Below are positions 10,505-26,617 of a stretch of DNA of 47,238 bases, in pieces. The notes under the pieces were generated by a model. It made no database searches and was not told where the DNA came from. It saw only the letters and a program-made list of their open reading frames with translations. Made by a program: the position numbers and the translations under genes. Each line of letters opens with the position of its first letter. The first letter of the stretch is position 1. Source of the stretch: a virus. Taxonomy: Duplodnaviria; Caudoviricetes. Location: IMG/VR virus record IMGVR_UViG_3300029823_000002, positions 1 to 47,238 of that record; one strand, 5' to 3'.

Positions 10505-10810
10505 TCACCAAAAGTCATTAAGTGTTTCTTTCGCAGCTTTGTTGATCTTTTCTTTCTCTTTGTCTTCCACTTGTGTTTGTACAAATTGCGTAGTCTGTAC
10601 ATTATGTTGGTATTCGCCGATCATTCTTTCGAGTCTTGCAATCCGTTCCTCATACTCCGCATCCCTTTGCCCTTTACCTCTATCCTTCACCAATCGGCGT
10701 ATCGCTTCAGAGAAGGGGATTCCTTGCCTTTCGGTTTCTTCTAGGAATTCATTCATGTAAGCGTCAGAATCGGAATCCCACACGATGTTCTTTCGAATAT
10801 AATTAGGCAT
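10505..10810 (-). CDS. parR: ParR-like adaptor (ribbon-helix-helix plus coiled coil)
   Basis: N-terminal beta-alpha-alpha pattern ('RKNIVW...FSEAIRRLV'), translationally coupled downstream of the ParM-like gene. Confidence 0.65.
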   Translation of the reverse strand: MPNYIRKNIVWDSDSDAYMNEFLEETERQGIPFSEAIRRLVKDRGKGQRDAEYEERIARLERMIGEYQHNVQTTQFVQTQVEDKEKEKINKAAKETLNDFW

Positions 10811-11819
10811 CTTTCATCTTCGCCATAATCTCCTGTCCGAAGCAATTTGCCCAACGGCTTTGGTGAAGTCCTTGAATGTCATTGGTATAAAAGGCGGGTT
10901 TGAGATACGGAACTAAGACGGAACCTCCACCGCTGACTAAAACATGATTGACTTGTTTTCTGTCAGCTTCAGGGATTAACGCTGAGATTTGGTCAATGAT
11001 CTTGCCAGCGTGTTTTCTCAGAATCTCGGACGCTTCCGGAGCGATTAAATGTGTCATGTCACCGATGCGAATGCTCTTTTTCTCGAAGATGTCTTTCAAT
11101 TCAGCGATGTTGGGTTCGTAGTCGTATGCGTCATTGAGGAAGTTAAGCATTTCAATCTCAGCAACGTGCATTCCTAAGTCCCATGCACCCGAAAATTCTT
11201 CAATGAATCTTAACCCCTTGAAATAAGCAATGTTACAGGTCTGGCTGCCGATGTCAATTACTGCTACGTTATCTTTAGCAAGATCAGGCCGAACTATTTC
11301 AAGCGTATTCGGATCATATACTGCTGAGTACATTGCGCCAACACCTTCGGGCAGGACGCGCACATCTGTAAACTTGAAGCGGATTGTTTTGCCAGTATGC
11401 TTTCCCCTGGTGATCCTTACTTCATATGCGCGTAAAAGGTCTTGCTGGAACTTCACCTTGTTTTTTGAGAAGTCGCGTATGTTGTAATTGACTACTGCTC
11501 GGCCTTCCCAGTCGTTCATGTTGTGTTCAGCGAGAATAAAAGCGGTGCCTGCGGCGAGCTGTACTCTTGTGTGAGGATCGCTTGTTTTATCTCTTACCCT
11601 GACTTGCCGGTTAAAACGATCTTCATTGAGTGCTAATTCACCGATCAGGTATTCGCGCCCGTCATACTTGATCGCGAGGGAATCAATGCCGCCTTCGAGG
11701 TCGGGCATGCGAAACTCTTTGCCGCTTCCAACGGCTGCAGGAAAGGAATAAGTGTTATCGCCAAAAACAAACCTGCATTCACTTCTGCCTGAGTCTGATA
11801 CTATTCGGTTGATTTTCAT
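10803..11819 (-). CDS. parM: ParM/StbA-family actin-like ATPase
   Basis: Actin phosphate motifs 'DSGRSECR', 'VLPEGVGA', 'VIDIGSQTCN', 'VLVSGGGS' and 'WAN..G'. Confidence 0.88.
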   Translation of the reverse strand: MKINRIVSDSGRSECRFVFGDNTYSFPAAVGSGKEFRMPDLEGGIDSLAIKYDGREYLIGELALNEDRFNRQVRVRDKTSDPHTRVQLAAGTAFILAEHNMNDWEGRAVVNYNIRDFSKNKVKFQQDLLRAYEVRITRGKHTGKTIRFKFTDVRVLPEGVGAMYSAVYDPNTLEIVRPDLAKDNVAVIDIGSQTCNIAYFKGLRFIEEFSGAWDLGMHVAEIEMLNFLNDAYDYEPNIAELKDIFEKKSIRIGDMTHLIAPEASEILRKHAGKIIDQISALIPEADRKQVNHVLVSGGGSVLVPYLKPAFYTNDIQGLHQSRWANCFGQEIMAKMKDA

Positions 11820-12280: not shown

Positions 12281-13501
12281 ATGGCAAAGCGTGTCGAGCC
12301 TATGGAGACTCCAGGGGTAATCGGCATGATAACATTGATCTTTGGGATCATGGCTGAAGTGATGAGTAGGGATCCGTTCTGGAGGTGGTTTTCATACGCC
12401 GCCGTGGGAATGATTGCATATCATTTTGCGCCTGATCCGCGCTGGAAGATAAAGACTTTGTTTAAGTCCTTGAAGCTATACTTCCAAGACGATGATAAGG
12501 ATTGGTTCCCTAGAATATTCGATGAACATGTACTTGAAAACGGTAAGGAGTATGTCATGACACTTCCTCCCGGCATATGCTCTGAGGATTTTAAGAAGAA
12601 CGAGCAAAGATTGTCAGAGGGATTAGGAGCGCACGTTGAAACGCGATACGAGAATGGAACCATCAGAATGAAGATCCTTGAAAACAAGCTCATGAGTAAA
12701 TACGATTATGAAGTCATCGAAACAAAGAATCCGGTTGAGATCCCTATTGGTTATGGCTATGAAGGGTTGCACACCTTAACGTTTAGCGATCAGGTTTCCG
12801 CTCTGCTTGTGGGAGGTTATCCCGGTTCCGGAAAGTCAGTGTTTCTTAGGCAAGCTATTGTTAATCTCATATTGACTAAAAGCCCTAGCGATTTACAGCT
12901 TTACCTTGTTGACTTAAAGAATGGTGTTGAGTTTGAGATGTTTAAAAGGGTTGAACATGTGGCCGGATTCGCCAAGAATGAATCCGAAGCGATGAAGCTG
13001 TTCAAATACCTTGAATATCTCACCGAAGAACGCTACAAGAAGCTGAGTAAAGCTAATGTGGTCAATGTTACTGAATACAACAAAAAGGGTAAAATGGATT
13101 ATCATTTAGTGATCATCGATGAGTATGCCAATCTCAGGGAAAACAAAGAGATCCAAGCAAAGGTTGATAAGCTGTTAAGGGTCTGTCGCGCGGTCGGGAT
13201 TTACTTTATTGTCTGCACCCAAAGACCTTCTGCTGAAACAGTGCCGGGATTGATCAAGGCAAACACTCAATCAGTGTTAGCGTTCGCCGTAAAGAATCAA
13301 GTCAATTCAAGGATCTTGCTGGACAACGATAAAGCGGCTGATATTGAAATACCGGGTCGCGCAATCTATCAGCAAGGGTCTAAAGACAAGGAGGTGCAGG
13401 TAATGTTCTTGCCTGATATTAAGGCGCGAAGACTGATCGCGCCCTATAACCGCAAGCAAATTCCGGAAGCAAAGAATAACAGGGGTGTTGAAAAGTGTTG
13501 A
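12281..13501 (+). CDS. FtsK/SpoIIIE-family DNA translocase ATPase
   Basis: N-terminal TM segments, Walker A GYPGSGKS, 'LVDLKNGVEF', Walker B 'VIIDE', 'CTQRP', 'PGRAI'. Confidence 0.9.
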   Translation: MAKRVEPMETPGVIGMITLIFGIMAEVMSRDPFWRWFSYAAVGMIAYHFAPDPRWKIKTLFKSLKLYFQDDDKDWFPRIFDEHVLENGKEYVMTLPPGICSEDFKKNEQRLSEGLGAHVETRYENGTIRMKILENKLMSKYDYEVIETKNPVEIPIGYGYEGLHTLTFSDQVSALLVGGYPGSGKSVFLRQAIVNLILTKSPSDLQLYLVDLKNGVEFEMFKRVEHVAGFAKNESEAMKLFKYLEYLTEERYKKLSKANVVNVTEYNKKGKMDYHLVIIDEYANLRENKEIQAKVDKLLRVCRAVGIYFIVCTQRPSAETVPGLIKANTQSVLAFAVKNQVNSRILLDNDKAADIEIPGRAIYQQGSKDKEVQVMFLPDIKARRLIAPYNRKQIPEAKNNRGVEKC

Positions 13502-14061
13502 CTAAAAGGGATAAGCAAATTATAAGATTCATTGAAGACTTTGGCGCGATCACCAGAAAACAAGTTGAAGCACTTTTCTTTAGCAACGTTAAATACTCTA
13601 CTTCTCTTGCAAACAAGCGATTGCTTAATATAATCAAGGAACCGTACATAGCGAGAAGTCGGGAACCCTATTCAAATCAATACATATATCACCTTAAAGG
13701 AATCAAGCAGTTAGAACACCGCATATTGCGTTCAGAATTTTATCTAAGGCTAATCACCTTGGGTGGTCAAATTAAAACGTTTGTGAGCGAATACAGGGCT
13801 TCAAATTTACGCGCCGATGCGTTCTGTGTTTACGAAAAGGACGGATTCCGCTATTATTTCTGCTTAGAAGTGCAAACGGAGAACAAATTGGACATAGATA
13901 AGTACATTGGTCTTTACGAATCCGATGATTGGCCATTCAAGGTATTTCCTAGGGTGGTTGCAATCACAGACCGTAAAATTGAGGTTGAAACCGAATTCCT
14001 CTTGTTCGTTGTCGGGAAAAATTTTGAGGGGTGGGACAAGATATTTAAAACATGTCCGTAA
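13495..14061 (+). CDS. Replication-relaxation family protein (wHTH plus PD-(D/E)xK)
   Basis: 'LT.RD..I..FIE.FG..T..Q', 'H.I.R.EFY', 'RADAF', 'LEVQ', 'KY..LY.S..W....FP' motifs, coupled to ftsK. Confidence 0.75.
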   Translation: MLTKRDKQIIRFIEDFGAITRKQVEALFFSNVKYSTSLANKRLLNIIKEPYIARSREPYSNQYIYHLKGIKQLEHRILRSEFYLRLITLGGQIKTFVSEYRASNLRADAFCVYEKDGFRYYFCLEVQTENKLDIDKYIGLYESDDWPFKVFPRVVAITDRKIEVETEFLLFVVGKNFEGWDKIFKTCP

Positions 14062-16004: not shown

Positions 16005-16661
16005 CTATCTGTAGTATACCTTAGATTGTTCCTCAAGCTGCTGCTTTAAGCGTTCGTTCTCCAAAAGTGTCTTCTGGAGTAACGCTTTGAGTGATTGATC
16101 ATCCTTGTTACCGGAAAGATATTTGCCGATCTGCTGCCAATTATGCGAAGATAGGTACCTGTCGGTTGTTGCTAAACTTGCGTGTCTGAGCAAGTCCCTG
16201 ACGACCGGCAATGGTACTCCATTGTCAACGAGGTTTGTTGCAGTTGTTCTGCGTATGTTATGCCATCTTAAGCGATTGTTTAATTTGGCGTGTTTGCGAA
16301 TTGTTTCAATGATAGCTTGCATTGCTCTATTGGTGAGCTGATCGCCGTTTTCAGTGCAAAAGAACCATTCTGAGTCAGGGCGATACTTTGCCCATTTTAG
16401 GATTAGTGGATCGTCTTTAGGGAAGGGAAGTTCGGCGTATTTGTCACCCTTGCCTATGACTGTGAAGTAACCGGCTTTCCAGTTGAAGTCTGTTGCCTTG
16501 ATTGTTCTTAGTTCAGTACGCCTTAAGGCAGTTGTTTCTGCGAATCTGAGCATAGCCTTGTTTCGGCATCTTACCAAAGCATCGGGGAAACGGTCACATG
16601 CTTTATATGCGCGTTCCATTTCATCCTCTGAGATTACCGAACATACTACACGCTGACGCAT
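16005..16661 (-). CDS. Tyrosine recombinase, catalytic domain only (resolvase/invertase-like)
   Basis: 'LRRTEL', 'GKGDK', 'HNIRRT', 'LRHASLATTDRY' give the complete R-K-H-R-H-Y set. 218 aa with no N-terminal arm or core-binding domain. Confidence 0.9.
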   Translation of the reverse strand: MRQRVVCSVISEDEMERAYKACDRFPDALVRCRNKAMLRFAETTALRRTELRTIKATDFNWKAGYFTVIGKGDKYAELPFPKDDPLILKWAKYRPDSEWFFCTENGDQLTNRAMQAIIETIRKHAKLNNRLRWHNIRRTTATNLVDNGVPLPVVRDLLRHASLATTDRYLSSHNWQQIGKYLSGNKDDQSLKALLQKTLLENERLKQQLEEQSKVYYR

Positions 16662-19748: not shown

Positions 19749-19804
19749 GTTACCTCCAATAAAAAACACAGCATAAAGCTGTGCTGTTGGGAATCACTGT
19801 ATTC

Positions 19805-19942
19805 CGGATATTTTAAGGGCGGGTATAGGGGGTGACTATGGTTTCCAGCTATTGGAACTCGGATATTTCGGTGTCGGGTATAGGGGGTGACTAGTAATAT
19901 CATAGATACCGGGGTTCGGAGCCTCTACCCCCCCTACCCCCC
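19805..19942. repeat. Direct repeats and G/C tracts, candidate packaging/terminus region
   Basis: CGGATATTT-N6-CGGGTATAGGGGGTGACTA twice at a 55-bp period, then CTACCCCCCCTACCCCCC, in non-coding DNA at a strand switch. Confidence 0.5.
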
Positions 19943-20622
19943 AGCCGAAAAAGCTTCCTATTATATCCTGGCAGTCAACCAGTAAAACCCTCTCTATCAG
20001 CCCATATCCTAATAGGAAATGAGGCCAATCAGCAGCGAAACACAACCATAGCTGTGGAAAACTAAGCAAACACTTGAAATGAGTGGGCTTATTGACTGTC
20101 TTTAAAACCCCTGCTACAAACTGTTTGAGTGTCATTATTATGTATTGTAAACAAAGACCAGCTAGAAGGCTTAGGTAACTAGTTACATATTATTGATGGA
20201 ATGCAGTAATGACAAGGGTTTGGGGAGGGTGCCGAAAATTGGGCAGGTAAATACTTGACAAGGCCAACCACCCAACACAACCATAATTATTAAACACATC
20301 GTATCTTGCCCAACACAGTGTTGATTTTCTCAACCATTAAGTAATCCTTAATACTCTCCTATCATACGAACTGATTACATCTAATGCACTCAGCTAAATA
20401 TATGATAACGCTCACACTTAAGACAATCAGTAACAGCATTAACACTCCAAAGAAGATCCACCAAATGATCTCTAGTAATGATCTCCCTCTCATGTAATCT
20501 CTCTCCTTCTGACTCTCTATAGATTCTTTCTCTCCTGGCATTCTCTCCAGGTATTTTCCCTTCCATTTAATATGGCAATTCGCAGCGGCGAAATTTACCA
20601 AAAACATTTTATGAAATAGTAG

Positions 20623-20651
20623 TTGACATCTGCAATATGCTGTAGTAATAT
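20623..20651 (+). promoter_or_regulatory. Early promoter 1
   Basis: TTGACA-N17-TAATAT followed by GTAGACGA, which is shared with the promoter at 22873. Confidence 0.75.
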
Positions 20652-20687
20652 GTAGACGAGAGATAAAACTTGTGGGGGGAACGACGA

Positions 20688-20969
20688 ATGACAAAGGCCG
20701 AAAGAATTTTCATGAGAACTCATATAGATTGTGCGCTACACATAAAAGTGTGGGGGTACACTGAGAACGTAGGATTCAATGGAGTAACGGTAGGCGAGCA
20801 TGAATTAATTAGTACAAGAACCGTAAACGCTCTTAGAAAGATTCTGGAGTCAAGAAAGCGCTTACTGGAAACCGATCTGAAATTGAACGTGGTGAGTCCG
20901 GGAAAATACCAAGAGGAAAAGAACGTTTTGAGCATGGTGGAAGTTACGTTAAACAATACCAAATTCTAA
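20688..20969 (+). CDS. Early hypothetical protein
   Basis: First ORF after the promoter, GGGGG RBS. Confidence 0.65.
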   Translation: MTKAERIFMRTHIDCALHIKVWGYTENVGFNGVTVGEHELISTRTVNALRKILESRKRLLETDLKLNVVSPGKYQEEKNVLSMVEVTLNNTKF

Positions 20970-20970
20970 G

Positions 20971-21027
20971 CGCAGAGTGACGGGGAGCAATCCCCGGTAA
21001 TGCGGAGGGCCGGTCACAATCCCGGCC
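20971..21027 (+). ncRNA. Twister ribozyme (circularly permuted, P1 closed by a loop)
   Basis: CGCAGAGUGA-C-GGGGA(GCAA)UCCCC-G-G-UAAUGCG...GGCCGG-UCACAAUC-CCGGCC. P2 is CGCA/UGCG and pseudoknot T1 is GUGA/UCAC. Predicted cleavage U20998^A20999. Confidence 0.85.
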
Positions 21028-21046
21028 AAGAAGGAGGAAATGAAAA

Positions 21047-21409
21047 ATGACAATGGCTGAGAAGTTTATGATCGCTGTTCGGGAATATGTTGAGCGCACC
21101 AACGAAAAATCTTATGACGCTATATGGGAAGATGTTGGCTTTAGAGAAAACGAATGGTTATTCGATGCGAAAACCTTCGATGACGACATCCAACCCAAGG
21201 TTTACTTTACGGACGGAACTGCTATAGTATGGAATGAATACACAGAGCAATTCGAGTATGCTCGCGCTGGAGAGAGCACCCAAACCTTCATGCGGCTAAT
21301 CCATACTTTCCCTCAGTTTGCAGGAAAATTCGTATTTGATAATCCCACCGAAGACGATCTCAAAAAGGCAATGAAGCACATCATGCGGAAAATGATTAAT
21401 CAAAAGTAA
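21047..21409 (+). CDS. Early hypothetical protein (paralogue of 22924..23109)
   Basis: AGGAGG RBS, shares the MTMAE start and 'F.DG...VWN' with 22924..23109. Confidence 0.7.
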   Translation: MTMAEKFMIAVREYVERTNEKSYDAIWEDVGFRENEWLFDAKTFDDDIQPKVYFTDGTAIVWNEYTEQFEYARAGESTQTFMRLIHTFPQFAGKFVFDNPTEDDLKKAMKHIMRKMINQK

Positions 21410-21460
21410 TTTACCCTGTAGTCAGCGCATCTATATGGTGCGCTGGATAAAGGATAAATT
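21408..21460 (+). other. Long imperfect RNA hairpin (RNase III-type processing stem candidate)
   Basis: AATTTACCCT..CAGCGCATC / GGTGCGCTG..AGGATAAATT, no U-tail, fills the whole intergenic spacer. Confidence 0.5.
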
Positions 21461-21470
21461 GGAAGGAGGG

Positions 21471-21584
21471 ATGGCATTGAGGCGCATTATGGAGATCCTT
21501 AACACAGATGTTGATCATTGGATCTGCGGAATCAGTATCGGATTGGCTCTCACATTCATTTTTTTCGCCGCAAGTGCTATTTAA
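21471..21584 (+). CDS. Small membrane peptide (37 aa)
   Basis: AAGGAGG RBS, MALRRIMEILNTDVDHWICGISIGLALTFIFFAASAI. Confidence 0.6.
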   Translation: MALRRIMEILNTDVDHWICGISIGLALTFIFFAASAI

Positions 21585-21612
21585 AGCTAAGTATTATATG
21601 GGAGGTAGTAAA

Positions 21613-22851
21613 ATGAAGCATTACATCTTTAATCTCGAAACCACCAAGATCGAGCTACACTTTGAAAAATCCGAGTATAACGCCTTATCAGAAGCCCAAA
21701 AAGCCGAATTAAAAAGCGCATTTCTTTGGAGCAATTACGGTAAGTGCTGGGTCAGTCGGGCAAAAGAGCCAAACCTTTGGAGAGCAAAGGAAGTCGCTCG
21801 CAAGTTGGGATTCGCTGAGGAACAGCGCGAAGGCGAGAGAATCTCCTTCGCCGAACAGCAGAATCGGCAATCAGCACGCGCCGAATCTCGCGCCGACCGT
21901 TACGATGAGTATGCTTCAAACGCAGAGCGCCGCGCCCAAGTTCTCCAGAAGCCTATTAGCGATATGCGCGGAGACATTGCTTTTTTCACACAGCCGAACA
22001 TTAATAGTAGTTCTGGCCGTGCCTTTGCGAACCGCCGCGAAAGAATGTTTAATCAATATCGCAAGGGTTTCGAGGAATACCGCAAAAGTGACTATTTCAG
22101 ATCTCGCGCCGCAATCGCTCGCGAGACTGCCGATCAAGGCAAGTTTGAAGATGTCGCGTATCTTGATCGCCGCATTAAAGAGGTTCGCACAGAGATCAAA
22201 AAGCGCGAAAAGAACGTTATCCATTACGAGGATCAATTATATCGCATCGAGAACGGCGAAGCGCTCACGCGATACAACGGCGAACCCATAACAGCCGATG
22301 AGATCAATTCCTGGCTTGAACGCGAACTTGAATTAATCGAAGTTGCAATGGATAAAGAGGGTTATTTGCTAAACCGCCTTGATGAGTGCGGCGGGATTAA
22401 ATTTTCTCCGGAAAACATCAAGGTTGGTTACATTGTTGAAATCAAACGACATGATCAAGTCGAAGTGGTCAGCAAAGGCAAAATAAACTTTACCTATAAG
22501 ATCCTGGCTGGCGGCGCGGCTGGTATGGTTTTAACCGCCGCATATGCTGAAATCGTTAAGATTGTCAAAGCCGAAAACGCGAAATCAGAGATTGTCAACC
22601 CATTTGCAACCGGCGACATACTCACACTTAACCGCCCCGCCGATAACAGTATTTATCGGGCGTTTCAGGTTTTGAAATCCACTGAAAAAAGCATCCAGGT
22701 ACAAGAGGTTGAAGTTGTTAATGGCATGCCGCAGCCGGGGAAATTCCGTTCCGGTAGTAAATCCGAGCGCAAGGGCATCGTTAAAAGCAAATTCAGTGAT
22801 TATGTCGGCGCTTATTATGATGATCGGCAAATGCATAAATACATCGCCTAA
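21613..22851 (+). CDS. DUF3560-domain protein
   Basis: 'RAESRADRYDEYASNAERRA...I.F.QP' helical motif followed by SH3-like segments, GGAGG RBS before ATG 21613. Confidence 0.7.
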   Translation: MKHYIFNLETTKIELHFEKSEYNALSEAQKAELKSAFLWSNYGKCWVSRAKEPNLWRAKEVARKLGFAEEQREGERISFAEQQNRQSARAESRADRYDEYASNAERRAQVLQKPISDMRGDIAFFTQPNINSSSGRAFANRRERMFNQYRKGFEEYRKSDYFRSRAAIARETADQGKFEDVAYLDRRIKEVRTEIKKREKNVIHYEDQLYRIENGEALTRYNGEPITADEINSWLERELELIEVAMDKEGYLLNRLDECGGIKFSPENIKVGYIVEIKRHDQVEVVSKGKINFTYKILAGGAAGMVLTAAYAEIVKIVKAENAKSEIVNPFATGDILTLNRPADNSIYRAFQVLKSTEKSIQVQEVEVVNGMPQPGKFRSGSKSERKGIVKSKFSDYVGAYYDDRQMHKYIA

Positions 22852-22868
22852 TTAAAATCCTGTAAATA

Positions 22869-22901
22869 CTATTTGACAAGTAGAATATCATATGATAAGA
22901 T
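22869..22901 (+). promoter_or_regulatory. Early promoter 2 overlapped by operator CTATTTGACAAGTAG
   Basis: TTGACA-N17-TAAGAT-GTAGACGA, with the operator covering the -35 element. Confidence 0.75.
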
Positions 22902-22923
22902 GTAGACGAAAGGAGGGTTGAGC

Positions 22924-23109
22924 ATGACAATGGCTGAGAACTGGTTAACCTTTATACCTGCAACCGAAGAATATATCAAACAGCATAATATCCAATCCGC
23001 AGAAGATCCAATCTTGGCAAAGTATCCGCATACATCGTATGTGACCTTCGCGGACGGATCGCGTGTGGTGTGGAATAAGGATAGTCAAGCGTGGGAGTTA
23101 GTTAGATAA
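22924..23109 (+). CDS. Early hypothetical protein (paralogue of 21047..21409)
   Basis: AAGGAGG RBS, first 17 nt identical to the start of 21047. Confidence 0.65.
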   Translation: MTMAENWLTFIPATEEYIKQHNIQSAEDPILAKYPHTSYVTFADGSRVVWNKDSQAWELVR

Positions 23110-23111
23110 AT

Positions 23112-23165
23112 CGCAGAGGGAGCCACGGAGGGCTTAATGCGGCAGCCGGGTTCCCAATCCCCGGC
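23112..23165 (+). ncRNA. Twister ribozyme (circularly permuted)
   Basis: CGCAGAGGG-AGCC(ACGGAG)GGCU-UAAUGCG...GCCGGG-UUCCCAAUC-CCCGGC. T1 covaries to GGGA/UCCC. Predicted cleavage U23135^A23136. Confidence 0.82.
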
Positions 23166-23194
23166 AAAGGCCGAAATAAGAGGAGGAAAGAGAA

Positions 23195-23776
23195 ATGATT
23201 AAAACCAATGCCGAGGAAATCCGCGCAGAGTTTGCCCCATTGTACTTGCGTTATAGCGGCCAGACCAACCCGCAGCCCGCGCACATCGAGATCGACCCCG
23301 AAGAAAAAACCATTACCGCAGAAGCCAACCCCGAAATCGGTAACGCCGTCCCGATGAACGTCTGGCATGGCCGCGCCCATCGTGTCAACATCAGCCCGTA
23401 CTACACCGGCAAGCAAGTTGCCGAAATCCTTGAAAACGTCGACTTTCAGAACATGGTGCAGCGTGTTTTTGATGGCTATTCTTGCGCCTATGACGGCGGC
23501 AACCACAACGGCCGCCTCACCGACGATGCTAAAGCCGCCCTGGAGGAAATGGAGTGCTTTTTGCAGGAGATGGATCAATACCTGAACGTCTCCGATTCTG
23601 GCGTGTCCGTCTGCGCCCCAGAGGATTGGTTTAGCGAGCTGCCGGATCTCGCCGGGAAAAGCGATGAAGAACTTTCCTTGCTCGCCGATCAGTTCCGCAC
23701 GGAAGCCGAGTCCGACAATGTTTGCATTGATGGCGACATCCTTCGTTTTTTGAAGGACCGTCGGGACGGAATATAA
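23195..23776 (+). CDS. Acidic early hypothetical protein
   Basis: GAGGAGG RBS, 193 aa, GC-rich codon usage. Confidence 0.7.
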   Translation: MIKTNAEEIRAEFAPLYLRYSGQTNPQPAHIEIDPEEKTITAEANPEIGNAVPMNVWHGRAHRVNISPYYTGKQVAEILENVDFQNMVQRVFDGYSCAYDGGNHNGRLTDDAKAALEEMECFLQEMDQYLNVSDSGVSVCAPEDWFSELPDLAGKSDEELSLLADQFRTEAESDNVCIDGDILRFLKDRRDGI

Positions 23777-23853
23777 GGAAGCGCACAAGCGGCCACGGAC
23801 GGCCTTTCCTCTTCCCGAATCTCCGGGGCCGGAGCGCCCCCTGACCAAGGCAA

Positions 23854-23909
23854 AACCCCCAAACCGCCAGTAGCGCAATGCGCCGGACTTGGCCGGGCGG
23901 TGTGAGGGG
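23854..23909 (+). ncRNA. Unrecognised structured RNA motif, copy A
   Basis: AACCCCCAAACCGCC...GGCGGTGTGAGGGG stem enclosing internal hairpins. Confidence 0.5.
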
Positions 23910-23943
23910 AATAAAAAGAAAATGACGTGAGGAGGCGAGAACA

Positions 23944-24483
23944 ATGTTAGCGCATATCGTGCAGGAGTTTGCGGAGCATACTGGCGTTTCGGTGCGCATA
24001 CTCACCGAAGACCGGTATAACGCCGCATACTACGTCATGGATGGCGTTCCCGGGCACGTCATATGCATTAATGAGCGTTTCGCAGATGAGGCGAAGCGTG
24101 TGACGGCTTCGTGCCAGTGGAAGGAGCTGTTGGCCAAAAACACAGAAGTTTTGCGGATGCTCGGGGTAGCCCCCACCCCGAAAAATCTAATCCTGTGTAC
24201 CTTGCTTCACGAGTTGGGTCACAGGGTACATAACGCGCGGATCGGTAATGATGAGTATCTTCGTTGCCACGACGCGCACGCCGCAGCTTGTCAAAAGGCG
24301 CGCCAGGACGCTCTCGCAGGGCGGATCTCGGCGAGTACATATAAGTCCCACTATGGCGGCGGGTTGTTGGAGCGATACGCCAATGCGTTCGCTCGCACCC
24401 ACATCCGAAAAGTAGCCGCAGCGGACTGGGCGGATCTGGCCACGGTCTGCCAAGCGGCGAAATTAGCCGTTGATTGGTGGTAG
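23944..24483 (+). CDS. HExxH zinc metallopeptidase-like protein (ImmA/IrrE-like fold)
   Basis: 'ICIN', 'LLHELGHRVH', 'LERYANAFA'. Confidence 0.65.
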   Translation: MLAHIVQEFAEHTGVSVRILTEDRYNAAYYVMDGVPGHVICINERFADEAKRVTASCQWKELLAKNTEVLRMLGVAPTPKNLILCTLLHELGHRVHNARIGNDEYLRCHDAHAAACQKARQDALAGRISASTYKSHYGGGLLERYANAFARTHIRKVAAADWADLATVCQAAKLAVDWW

Positions 24484-24515
24484 AAGTCAGGAGACGGCTC
24501 TCTTGACTGGGACAG

Positions 24516-24580
24516 AACCCCCAAACCACGAGGCATGGCTGTGACGCTCAGCCCCGACCCAGTGGCGTGGTGTGAGGGGG
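24516..24580 (+). ncRNA. Unrecognised structured RNA motif, copy B
   Basis: AACCCCCAAACCACG...CGTGGTGTGAGGGGG with compensatory changes relative to copy A. Confidence 0.5.
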
Positions 24581-24604
24581 AAAAATGAAATTGGAGGGAC
24601 GAAA

Positions 24605-24790
24605 ATGAGTGGCAAGATAGTAATCGAATTCACGCCCGCAGAATTTGATCTAGTTGTTGCCGCCGCCGATGCGCTCATCACCGAGATGGGGATGCTTGGC
24701 GGCGATTCCCGAGCTGATGAAGCCATCGCGCTTCTGGATCGGCTTGAAAAAATGCAGTACGAAATGATGGAGGAGAAAGCCGATGATTAG
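24605..24790 (+). CDS. Small acidic protein
   Basis: GGAGGG RBS, 61 aa, strongly Asp/Glu-rich. Confidence 0.6.
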   Translation: MSGKIVIEFTPAEFDLVVAAADALITEMGMLGGDSRADEAIALLDRLEKMQYEMMEEKADD

Positions 24791-25118
24791 TTTGATCAAT
24801 CTCACACCCCATGCCATCAATTTGATGGCAGATGGGGAAGCCATCACCATTAAGCCATCTGGCATCATTGCCAGATGCACGACGGCTCGCGAGCAGGTTG
24901 ATTCAGTTGAAATTGATGGGGTTGTATTCCCCGTCAACGAAATCAAATTCGGTGAAGTGCAGGGGCTGCCTGCGCCGAAGCCGGACACCTTCTATGTCGT
25001 TTCGTCCCTGGTCGCTAATGCGGCCAAGTACCGGAAAGATCTTCTGACCGTCGATGAAGCGGTCAGGGATGGCAACGGTAATATTATCGGTGCGCGCGCG
25101 CTAGCTCGCACCAATTAA
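24783..25118 (+). CDS. NLTPH-motif protein, candidate Crn4-like ring nuclease
   Basis: 'INLTPH.I', 'PSG..AR', 'GLP.P....YVVS', 'R.DL', 'VRD..G.IIG' motif set. Confidence 0.5.
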   Translation: MISLINLTPHAINLMADGEAITIKPSGIIARCTTAREQVDSVEIDGVVFPVNEIKFGEVQGLPAPKPDTFYVVSSLVANAAKYRKDLLTVDEAVRDGNGNIIGARALARTN

Positions 25119-25129
25119 GGAGGGACAAC

Positions 25130-25408
25130 ATGCGTTTCTTATGCACAGTGCCTGTTGAGGGTACCGAGAGGCCGGGGATGTCTGCGAATGGCTATCCGGC
25201 AATCTTCTGCGACAAAGCGGAAGTATATGCCTATAGCGATGGCCGTCCGTGTAAAGTCAAAATATTGCAGGATCAGTTCCTGCACTACGACGCGGCTCGT
25301 TATCCCGAGGGGCATTTAGATGTTTGCCCCTATTGCGGAACGCCAAATTATCAGGACGGTGTTTCGCTCCGCAATGGGCATGACTGCTACTATTGTGGGA
25401 GCAACTAA
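25130..25408 (+). CDS. Zinc-ribbon protein
   Basis: CPYC...CYYC, AAGGAGG RBS. Confidence 0.65.
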   Translation: MRFLCTVPVEGTERPGMSANGYPAIFCDKAEVYAYSDGRPCKVKILQDQFLHYDAARYPEGHLDVCPYCGTPNYQDGVSLRNGHDCYYCGSN

Positions 25409-25423
25409 GCCCAAGGATGGGCT

Positions 25424-25474
25424 TTCTCCCCTTGTTAAGCCCTCCCTACATGAGAGGGTTTAAGAAAGGGAGAA
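25424..25474 (+). other. Long hairpin sequestering the RBS of the next gene
   Basis: TTCTCCC..TTAAGCCCTC / GAGGGTTTAA..GGGAGAA. Confidence 0.5.
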
Positions 25475-25478
25475 TAAA

Positions 25479-25652
25479 ATGAGGCGCGTTATCTATCCTT
25501 GCGTTTTTGATCTGGCAATGGTTAGCGTATACGATGTCGACCGAATCAACGCATACGGCGAAATGTACTGCGTGGCCGAAGGGATCCCGCCAGAAGAGGT
25601 TGATCAACGTTGGGATGAGTACGTCCAGCGCAGAACGCTTGACAGTGAATAA
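25479..25652 (+). CDS. Small hypothetical protein (57 aa)
   Basis: Own translation MRRVIYPCVFDLAMVSVYDVDRINAYGEMYCVAEG..., GGGAG RBS. Confidence 0.55.
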   Translation: MRRVIYPCVFDLAMVSVYDVDRINAYGEMYCVAEGIPPEEVDQRWDEYVQRRTLDSE

Positions 25653-25667
25653 TAGATGGTATATACT
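25639..25667 (+). promoter_or_regulatory. sigma-A promoter pointing antisense into the putative terS
   Basis: TTGACA-N17-TATACT. Confidence 0.6.
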
Positions 25668-25700
25668 ATCTGTGAGGGGTGATTTTCGGGAAAGGAGGGA

Positions 25701-26144
25701 TTAGGATGATTCCCCCGCCAATTCTTTCAGCTTAGTTAATAATTCCAGCGTTTTCTTGGCGAATTTCTTATCTTTCTTGTAAAGTTCAAACTTATCTGTT
25801 CCCGCCCAAATAGCTCTAAGGATTAAGGAGGTGTCATCAATTTCTGACAAGTTTTCGCTTTCGTCCTTTTTATCGAGAAGCCCACCAATACCGGCTAACA
25901 GCTTCTGAGACTGTGCGTTGCCATTTACCGCTGCGCTATGGATGGCGTTGAGTAGTTCAGCTTTTTTAGCTAAAGATAAGCTATGATTTTTTAACTGCTT
26001 GTCCGCATGTTCCGCGTATTCCGTGGATTTGCGGATTGTCCTCAGCCTTGAGTCACTTATTTCCAGCTTATCAGCAATCTTAGACAAGGATGTTCCGGAA
26101 AGCTCCAGGTCAACGATCTTTGGTATTAAATCAGTGTTTTCCAT
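25701..26144 (-). CDS. Putative terminase small subunit (HTH)
   Basis: N-terminal HTH 'SLSKIADKLEISDSRLRTIR' and 'LNAI..AA.NGN.Q..KL...IGG' pattern seen in Bacillota-phage small terminases. Confidence 0.55.
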   Translation of the reverse strand: MENTDLIPKIVDLELSGTSLSKIADKLEISDSRLRTIRKSTEYAEHADKQLKNHSLSLAKKAELLNAIHSAAVNGNAQSQKLLAGIGGLLDKKDESENLSEIDDTSLILRAIWAGTDKFELYKKDKKFAKKTLELLTKLKELAGESS

Positions 26145-26344: not shown

Positions 26345-26617
26345 TTACTCTACAACAATCCAATCTTCGGCAAGCATGTCTGTCTGCGAAGCCAGCCACG
26401 GCACGCGGCTTTTGGGCGCATCGGGGTTGGTCGTTTGCAGTCCTGTAGTGTCGATAAAGATGTACGGGGAGGTCATCTTGCTGTGTTCGTCCGGCCGCTG
26501 CAGTTCAACAAATATGCCCTTGCCGTTCCATCCCGAACGTGCGACCTTACAACCATTCTTCAGTCTTTGTAATGCTTCGGAAAAATCGAGATATGGATTC
26601 AGTGAACTACACACCAC
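26345..26617 (-). CDS. tad2: DUF2829 / Tad2-like anti-defence sponge protein, native start codon disrupted by an IS remnant
   Basis: 'DFSEAL..LK.G.KVAR.GWNGKG.F', 'PYI.I', 'VPWLASQTDMLAEDW' signature. Confidence 0.8.
   Translation of the reverse strand: MVCSSLNPYLDFSEALQRLKNGCKVARSGWNGKGIFVELQRPDEHSKMTSPYIFIDTTGLQTTNPDAPKSRVPWLASQTDMLAEDWIVVE

Follow-up and report, generated by a model that had tools for sequence, protein, structure and literature searches.

The early messenger RNA (mRNA) of phage T7 is processed by RNase III, the substrates of which present about two helical turns of double-stranded RNA. RNase III also processes the early mRNA of phage SP82 (cited in PMC4838370; publications are given here by PubMed Central number). 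Bacterial ribozymes cluster near phage genes and near each other, for a biological reason described as unknown, and the processing of polycistronic mRNA has already been suggested as their role, which in bacteria and phages is described as largely unknown (PMC6765202, PMC10085705). Here we describe an island of small plus-strand genes in the phage genome IMGVR_UViG_3300029823_000002 (47,238 nucleotides (nt), analysed over its full length and referred to below as the window), in which the spacers between genes hold an intact Twister-P5 ribozyme motif, a degenerate second twister, two long hairpins and two copies of a pseudoknotted RNA, motif A/B. The island genuinely exemplifies a layout already known in outline, and its value lies in motif A/B.

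The window is an entire virus record, classed as having direct terminal repeats, with a phage gene set that includes portal, large terminase, capsid, DnaB, methyltransferases, a tyrosine recombinase and a Tad2-like gene, and nearly all of its genes lie on the minus strand. The island (20688–25652; all features below are on the plus strand unless stated) comprises 11 open reading frames (ORFs), each led by a ribosome-binding site (RBS), and the ORF list confirms it as the largest plus-strand block in the window, as a first-pass annotation of this DNA had stated. It is preceded by an 830-nt non-coding gap, and the methylase-terminase genes are divergent from it. Spacers of more than 60 nt were found at seven of the ten junctions, six of them with an RNA structure and the seventh with promoter P2, in agreement with the first-pass claim that nearly every longer spacer is filled in this way. 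We consider it moderately probable that this is a swappable accessory island with two host-polymerase promoters, the mRNA of which twister and hairpins, together with motif A/B, divide into units of one to three genes.

The intact Twister-P5 element lies at 20971–21025 and gave the only above-cut-off Rfam match in the window (61.5 bits, against a cut-off of 37.6). Stems P1, P2 and P4, together with pseudoknots T1 and T2, are all paired, and the UAA and GAG core is present. Twister self-cleaves at a U-A site (PMC6154101), and the cut is predicted here at U20998/A20999. The second copy, at 23112–23163, has an intact core and an intact T1, and would be cut at U23135/A23136 if active; its score was 35.3 bits (E 1.2e-4), below the same gathering cut-off, only one of its two T2 pairs is formed (a mismatch seen in 4 of 107 parsed P5 sequences) and loop L4 carries an extra U, the sole case among the 107. 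This copy may be slow or dead. Of the two twisters that had been proposed, then, the Rfam scan upheld the first and left the second as a degenerate, sub-cut-off match, and it gave no match over motifs A and B. A twister-like remnant, 76% identical over 25 nt to the 5′ half of the second twister, was observed upstream of motif A at 23779–23808.

A pattern scan of the viral collection yielded 124 Twister-P5 loci from 29 of its 64 parts. Among the 107 distinct parsed sequences, 52 lay between a stop codon and an RBS-led start, compared with 10 of 790 random positions; the stop-to-RBS layout is general and, since the processing of polycistrons has also been proposed in print, it is not new. Two or more copies were present at 17 of the 124 loci by a loose pattern, some of these on the same contig, and copies on opposite strands at none. 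Eighteen loci were scanned with Rfam; one (L059) held P5 together with pistol, and two held six P5 copies each, on one strand and 410–592 nt apart. In the latter (L011, 2681–5405, plus strand; L034, 2104–4613, minus strand) the copies are separated by one or two small genes; the arrays, which apparently have genes in common, are cleaner test cases than the island in the window. The in-frame stop codon of the upstream ORF fell within the P5 5′ arm in just 14 of the 107 sequences (between L004 and L127), the proteins of which end in ...AE; the count of stop triplets in that arm (64 of 115) was left unused because it overlaps conserved T1 bases.

The long hairpins named in the first-pass annotation both folded well above shuffled sequences. 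The first (21408–21458; z −4.5) has about 20 base pairs (bp) with internal loops and resembles an RNase III substrate by size; the second lies at 25424, directly after a 5-bp hairpin, and the pair occupies 25409–25474 (z −5.9). Measured against the size of RNase III substrates, the long hairpins of the island have 18–20 bp with internal loops, and neither site was listed by a plus-strand terminator scan. The 3′ arm of the hairpin at 25424 contains, and pairs, the RBS of the next gene. This favours a different explanation, in which twister 1 is the only element to cut, and the hairpins and motif A/B serve as cis elements that do not cleave, such as protein-binding sites or exonuclease blocks, and that act on the translation or stability of the next gene; we hold this to be possible, on the doubtful side.

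Motif A (23842–23909) and motif B (24504–24579), assigned by pattern and covariation, proved to be copies of one pseudoknotted family (two matches, compared with none in 100 shuffles). The first-pass annotation had treated them as separate motifs starting at 23854 and 24516; the structures are real, their separation was not upheld, and their starts were moved 12 nt upstream because the pseudoknot arm lies there. The fold has three nested stems and a 5-bp pseudoknot (PK), in which a 5-nt 5′ arm pairs with a 6-nt loop. From the 5′ end the order is usually a hairpin, UGA, the 5-nt arm, RCA, P1, CAAA and P2, followed by a variable arm, the 3-bp stem P4 with its 6-nt loop, P2′, UGUG-N and P1′. In motif A the helices are PK 23845–49/23888–92, P1 23856–59/23906–09, P2 23864–68/23896–900 and P4 23884–86/23893–95, and a hairpin, P0, read from the sequence, lies directly 5′ at 23825–23840. 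The pseudoknot of motif B (24507–11/24558–62) is compensatory relative to that of motif A.

The family comprises 11 distinct cores in nine lineages, from the window record and eight unrelated records (window with L131, L134/135, L138, L142, L151, L202, L215, L240 and L251). A 12-row alignment, fitted to the nested stems and not to the pseudoknot, had 99% of cells paired and two-sided (compensatory) changes in 11 of 17 pairs; in these rows the pseudoknot was 100% paired, with three of its five pairs compensatory. An unfitted MAFFT alignment was 94% paired, and every helix shows compensatory base changes across lineages. Conservation of the spacer structures in relatives, on which the first-pass proposal depended, is for motif A/B borne out by covariation in nine lineages, with counts that are inflated because homologues had been retained for pairing. 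For this reason a pattern blind to the 5′ arm was applied. It gave 40 matches, and the seven with perfect inner stems (five known from earlier scans, two new) all had GA and a complementary arm in register; GA or an in-register arm was found in none of the remaining 33 (Fisher p 5e-8). A motif model built from nine copies recovered the held-out copies of L151 (57 bits) and L251 (33 bits), rejected loci (n = 100) scored at most 20.4 bits, and L254 (25.7 bits) was excluded as borderline. True matches in the successive pattern scans were 4 of 5, 3 of 19, 5 of 65 (two new) and the 7 of 40 just described, the remainder being dropped for lack of pairing; in the first of these L132 was dropped and L133 was the window's own sequence.

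Motif A/B is rare. The strict pattern matched no viral contigs, a blastn search with the motif returned chance matches alone, and the model found no copy in 116 viral records bearing Twister-P5, none in 149 scored genomes (one unrelated phylum sample) and no third copy in the window. A second pattern gave two matches, which were unpaired and were rejected as chance.

The surroundings of the motif are consistent across most copies. An RBS-led start follows within ∼45 nt in 10 of the 11 copies (for L215 as read from the sequence) and a stop codon precedes within 102 nt in 8; a strong sigma-A-like site lies upstream at four of the nine homologue loci, and nearby ribozyme matches in same-strand spacers occur in four of the nine lineages. 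Among these, L151 has a hammerhead II match above the cut-off. The matches of L202 (two, just under the cut-off) and L215 (HDV-like, after hepatitis delta virus, and P5-like, both under it) are weaker, and Rfam scans of the loci gave no nearby ribozyme match in the other five lineages. The hairpin before motif A in the sister element L131 opens with the 5′ arm of a Twister-P5, within which the upstream stop codon lies, and this suggests that twister and motif A/B can exchange parts. Further GC-rich structured spacers stand beside the motif in L240 (571–664 and 1048–1118, oriented) and L151 (2161–2249, oriented), and Rfam gave no ribozyme match in them. For the explanation by non-cleaving cis elements these loci speak in both directions: the motif of L138, L202 and L251 comes after an extended non-coding region, far from any upstream stop, much like a leader, whereas elsewhere it fills the slot taken by twister, hammerhead and HDV-like matches, its downstream genes are unrelated across lineages, unlike those of a ligand-sensing leader, and L142 has no gene directly downstream.

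No Rfam 15 family matched over motif A/B at E ≤ 10 in the window, at E ≤ 5 in five loci or at E ≤ 1 in seven loci, and no core of the hammerhead, twister or pistol type was seen in the motif. A likeness to the pistol, twister-sister, hatchet, hairpin and HDV folds or to a k-turn was considered, and was rejected or left undecided. With known self-cleaving folds motif A/B shares the slot, a length of 60–80 nt, a multi-stem junction, a pseudoknot and invariant loop residues; it differs in that its pseudoknot links the 5′ arm to a loop nested in two stems. A hammerhead, non-circular permutations included, was considered and rejected because the CUGAnGA, GAAA and cleavage-site blocks (defined after Eckert et al., PMC10085705) are absent; motif A/B has CAAA, and the segment after UGAC varies and pairs. 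All ten non-hammerhead motifs assayed in that study failed to cleave, which tempers any expectation of a new ribozyme; the missing catalytic core and the many candidates that do not cleave also suit a non-cleaving cis element. No published description of motif A/B was found, an unnamed listing being possible in the supplements of Weinberg 2015, Weinberg 2017 and Eckert 2023 and in the alignment archives of PMC10690425; the readable part of the latter's supplements, those archives apart, contained no short strings from the motif. That motif A/B is a new class of self-cleaving ribozyme is, on these comparisons, a tentative suggestion. The wider proposal, that phages draw on such an undescribed class and on twister, hammerhead and HDV-like ribozymes as equivalents, cutting early anti-defence operons into units that can be swapped, is offered with the same reserve.

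Two sigma-A-like promoters precede parts of the island, P1 at 20623–20659 (TTGACA-17-TAATAT) and P2 at 22873–22909 (TTGACA-17-TAAGAT, with an extended −10), each with a match of 10/12. Across the region promoter-like sites are no more numerous than chance predicts (9 found, 8.9 expected). P1 and P2, however, are both followed, after the −10 box, by GTAGACGA, a word with no other exact occurrence in the window, and together they form a 49-nt repeat with 73% identity. The matched pair of the first-pass annotation was in this way retained, and a third sigma-A-like site at the end of the island (25639–25667, match 11/12) had been overlooked. Downstream of it (25639–25740) an RBS is present with a 10-codon ORF only, facing a convergent 147-amino-acid (aa) gene, and variant contigs diverge directly after the site, which may represent a cassette slot that has been emptied, or else an antisense promoter.

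Comparison with related phages revealed whole-gene swaps, with most breakpoints in RNA-bearing spacers. L131 shares 23834–24599 (97%) and 24785–25433 (96%) with the window, and its genes differ before, between and after the two blocks, an ART-PolyVal gene having been swapped in. Three of its four breakpoints lie in RNA-bearing spacers and the fourth, without any element, at the start of the Crn4 gene, so that the earlier idea of the RNA elements as swap points was sustained in part. Further loose ends were seen in sequencing run X2 at 20972, 23165, 23853 and 25426; at the last of these the small 5-bp hairpin is altered in a compensatory manner, the only such variant seen. Two other loose ends of this run, at 23834 and 25430, and its joint 24583–24785 match L131, and hence are not independent of it. 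In run X10, P2 was joined directly to the 193-aa gene, twister 2 and its gene being absent, and a variant form was without the hairpin at 21408. Both the hairpin and twister 2 are dispensable, since variant contigs are without them; the X2 and X10 contigs may derive from other phages. The sister island of L131 (1–2900) lies behind a 12-of-12 promoter and ends at a 3′ fragment like that of a transfer RNA (tRNA), which, as read from the sequence, resembles a prophage attachment site; ARAGORN found no tRNA in L131.

These swaps bear on two further explanations. One holds that the spacer elements are mainly DNA recombination sites, like attC or PeSL, for the shuffling of cassettes, with RNA folding secondary. 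The ends of swaps in element-bearing spacers agree with it, as do a tyrosine-recombinase gene at 16005–16661 (a match to PF00589 only), the proposal of the DUF1874 motif as a possible attC-like site (PMC5737381) and the shuffling mediated by PeSLs (PMC2839356). It is nevertheless very improbable: the elements are unrelated folds, a family of catalytic RNAs among them, each of the seven other viral records holds a single copy of motif A/B, which so cannot pair with itself there, the G-U pairs of the motif favour plus-strand RNA, and one breakpoint has no element. The other explanation, that the RNAs are passengers on mobile gene fragments and have no function in the island, seems to us hardly tenable; it would account for the decay of twister 2 and for the twister-like remnant, whereas no pair has been lost in twister 1 or in either motif copy, and the changes that distinguish A from B are compensatory.

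The cargo of the island is mostly small. In order, it consists of a 93-aa ORF with no family (20688–20969), a 120-aa ORF (21047–21409) that is a weak paralogue of a later 61-aa ORF (22924–23109), a 37-aa ORF with a hydrophobic C-terminus (21471–21584), a 412-aa DUF3560 protein (21613–22851), the 61-aa ORF, a 193-aa ORF (23195–23776), a 179-aa ORF with an HELGH motif (23944–24483), an acidic 61-aa ORF (24605–24790; 15 D+E, 5 K+R) in place of which L131 has another gene, the Crn4b-type homologue (24783–25118), a 92-aa ORF with a Cys-rich C-terminus (25130–25408) and a 57-aa ORF (25479–25652). The ORFs at 21047 and 22924 have 17 identical starting bases and weak protein similarity, which suggests an old duplication of a promoter-gene-twister unit.

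The protein earlier labelled by its residues NLTPH is likely, from its sequence, to be an enzyme that destroys the alarm signals of CRISPR (cyclic oligoadenylates). It matched Crn4b (PDB 9r7b) over residues 1–109, its full length, with E 2.9e-11, and PADLOC Unk_01 with E 1.3e-25; T8, H10 and R95, the equivalents of T13, H15 and R112, are all conserved. Thr, His and Arg are required at these positions of Crn4b, and phage copies have already been reported as likely anti-CRISPRs (PMC12830947). The DUF3560 label was confirmed by a family match; its clusters are ∼60% viral where recorded, and no function for DUF3560 turned up in the literature. An unrelated phage (L001, 3185–4557) has a DUF3560 gene 84% identical to this one, behind a sigma-A-like promoter and divergent from terminase genes, and no ribozyme was found in it or in two further relatives (L002 and L003), including upstream of the L001 gene. 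The HExxH peptidase of the first-pass annotation keeps its motif, and had one near-identical relative and no family, PDB or structure match; a peptidase role may be proposed from the motif, zincin peptidases being common among early conflict proteins (PMC5512222), which is a lead only. PF26929 is carried by relatives of the 193-aa protein, the fold of which matched a single uncharacterised phage protein, with no PDB fold match and no viral locus. Anti-defence cargo rests on Crn4b here and ART-PolyVal in the sister element, and of the anti-defence array that had been envisaged one gene is supported.

Outside the island, a Tad2-like (Thoeris anti-defence) gene lies on the minus strand at 26345–26617 (E 6.8e-23) and terminates at a hairpin resembling a two-way terminator. 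An actin-like partition protein (10803–11819, minus strand) and, between portal and terminase, an inserted FtsK/SpoIIIE gene with a weak Replic_Relax gene (12281–14061) are plasmid-like traits; a blastn search with the island found no phage match and one weak plasmid match. The non-coding gap (19770–20600) holds a 34-nt repeat, and its contigs were the deepest in all three RNA runs, at ∼90% identity, contig depth being unable to rank expression. Contigs from these runs covered the island in part (28, 17 and 18 of 30 bins); they carry neither strand nor RNA ends and were not counted as expression. The sequencing runs containing at least half of this DNA carry the label fermentation metagenome or metagenome.

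According to the preferred reading, in which the island is transcribed from host-type promoters and its mRNA is processed, the host polymerase is likely to start at P1 and P2. A cut by twister 1 at its predicted site would leave an upstream mRNA that ends just after a hairpin and a downstream mRNA that begins ∼12 nt before one, and the degenerate twister 2 would possibly cut too. RNase III is likely to cut at the two long hairpins, and the copies of motif A/B are likely to serve the same processing role and mark two more boundaries, conceivably by self-cleavage and with greater probability as a fold that protects ends or guides a nuclease. The predicted units are the 93-aa ORF; the 120-aa ORF; the 37-aa ORF with DUF3560; the 61-aa ORF; the 193-aa ORF; the HExxH ORF; the acidic ORF with Crn4 and the 92-aa ORF; and the 57-aa ORF. 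The repeated spacer modules are also likely to supply short homology for gene swapping, as a by-product. Processing would occur in vivo and would uncouple the lifetimes of the units, the island as a whole would have an anti-defence purpose, and it would be expressed early, judging by promoter type and position only.

Several observations, in addition to the defects of twister 2, the inflated covariation counts, the absent catalytic core, the ten published candidates that did not cleave and the scarcity of ribozyme matches beside motif A/B, weigh against this reading. Two promoters would probably give two transcripts. Three junctions (28 nt, an overlap and 11 nt) are without any element, and the Crn4 gene lies inside a three-gene unit; the punctuation gene by gene of the first-pass annotation consequently holds for six of the seven long spacers and gives way to predicted units of one to three genes. 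The variants without the hairpin at 21408 and twister 2 and the breakpoint without an element count here also, and any whole-gene swap necessarily breaks in a spacer, so that the elements are not established as drivers of recombination. No family with a function or a DUF name was assigned for 9 of the 11 ORFs, and a defence link was found in just one. Lastly, Bacillus subtilis RNase J1 degrades the downstream fragments of cleavage (PMC4838370), which places in doubt the protected ends of the first-pass proposal; the host appears to be a member of the Bacillota, the DUF3560 protein having 56% identity to one encoded on an Oscillibacter plasmid, and in such a host cutting could destabilise the RNA instead. 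A decay timer, by which cutting exposes the downstream fragment to RNase J1 and confines toxic or costly early products to a short burst, is regarded as improbable. The probable host and the action of RNase J1 after internal cleavage are in its favour, and cleavage by the glmS ribozyme lowers expression (PMC6765202), whereas the P5 layout puts a hairpin near both new ends and the RNase J1 evidence (PMC4838370) concerns monophosphate ends, twister leaving a 5′-OH.

The island makes the question of ribozyme role testable, as it combines an intact twister, a natural degenerate twister and RNase III-like hairpins in one short operon, with a cargo gene, Crn4b, for which an assay exists. Motif A/B is a rare, covariation-supported pseudoknotted RNA in a slot that earlier yielded pistol, hatchet and twister-sister; should it prove not to cleave, it would remain a new conserved RNA fold that calls for a function.

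The DUF1874 RNA motif, presumably among the families of Rfam release 15, was compared with motif A/B through whole-Rfam scans, which gave no hit over the latter, and not against its own consensus. It is similar in having several stems and a conserved internal loop and in standing in consecutive spacers, as RNA-ORF-RNA (PMC5737381). The PeSL cassettes of T4-type phages (PMC2839356) resemble the island in their repeated regulatory modules, their setting in variable regions of small unknown genes and their position where gene swaps begin or end; they form a single sequence family of promoter-terminator units, whereas the island has mixed RNA folds and its hairpins are not listed as terminators. 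The Crn4b homologue agrees with the described protein (PDB 9r7b; PMC12830947) in its full-length match, a short hairpin of Crn4b type and the conserved Thr, His and Arg, and differs in that the window has no CRISPR locus. The processing of phage early mRNA by RNase III offers a parallel in long imperfect hairpins between genes of an operon of host-polymerase type, but fits just two of the six elements of the island. There is a likeness of kind, too, to the clusters of Twister-P5 (RF02684) and other phage ribozymes, with which the island shares the family and the clustering of ribozymes near phage genes; it differs from them in that long hairpins and a pseudoknotted, uncatalogued RNA alternate with its twisters, and in a cargo that includes a Crn4b gene.

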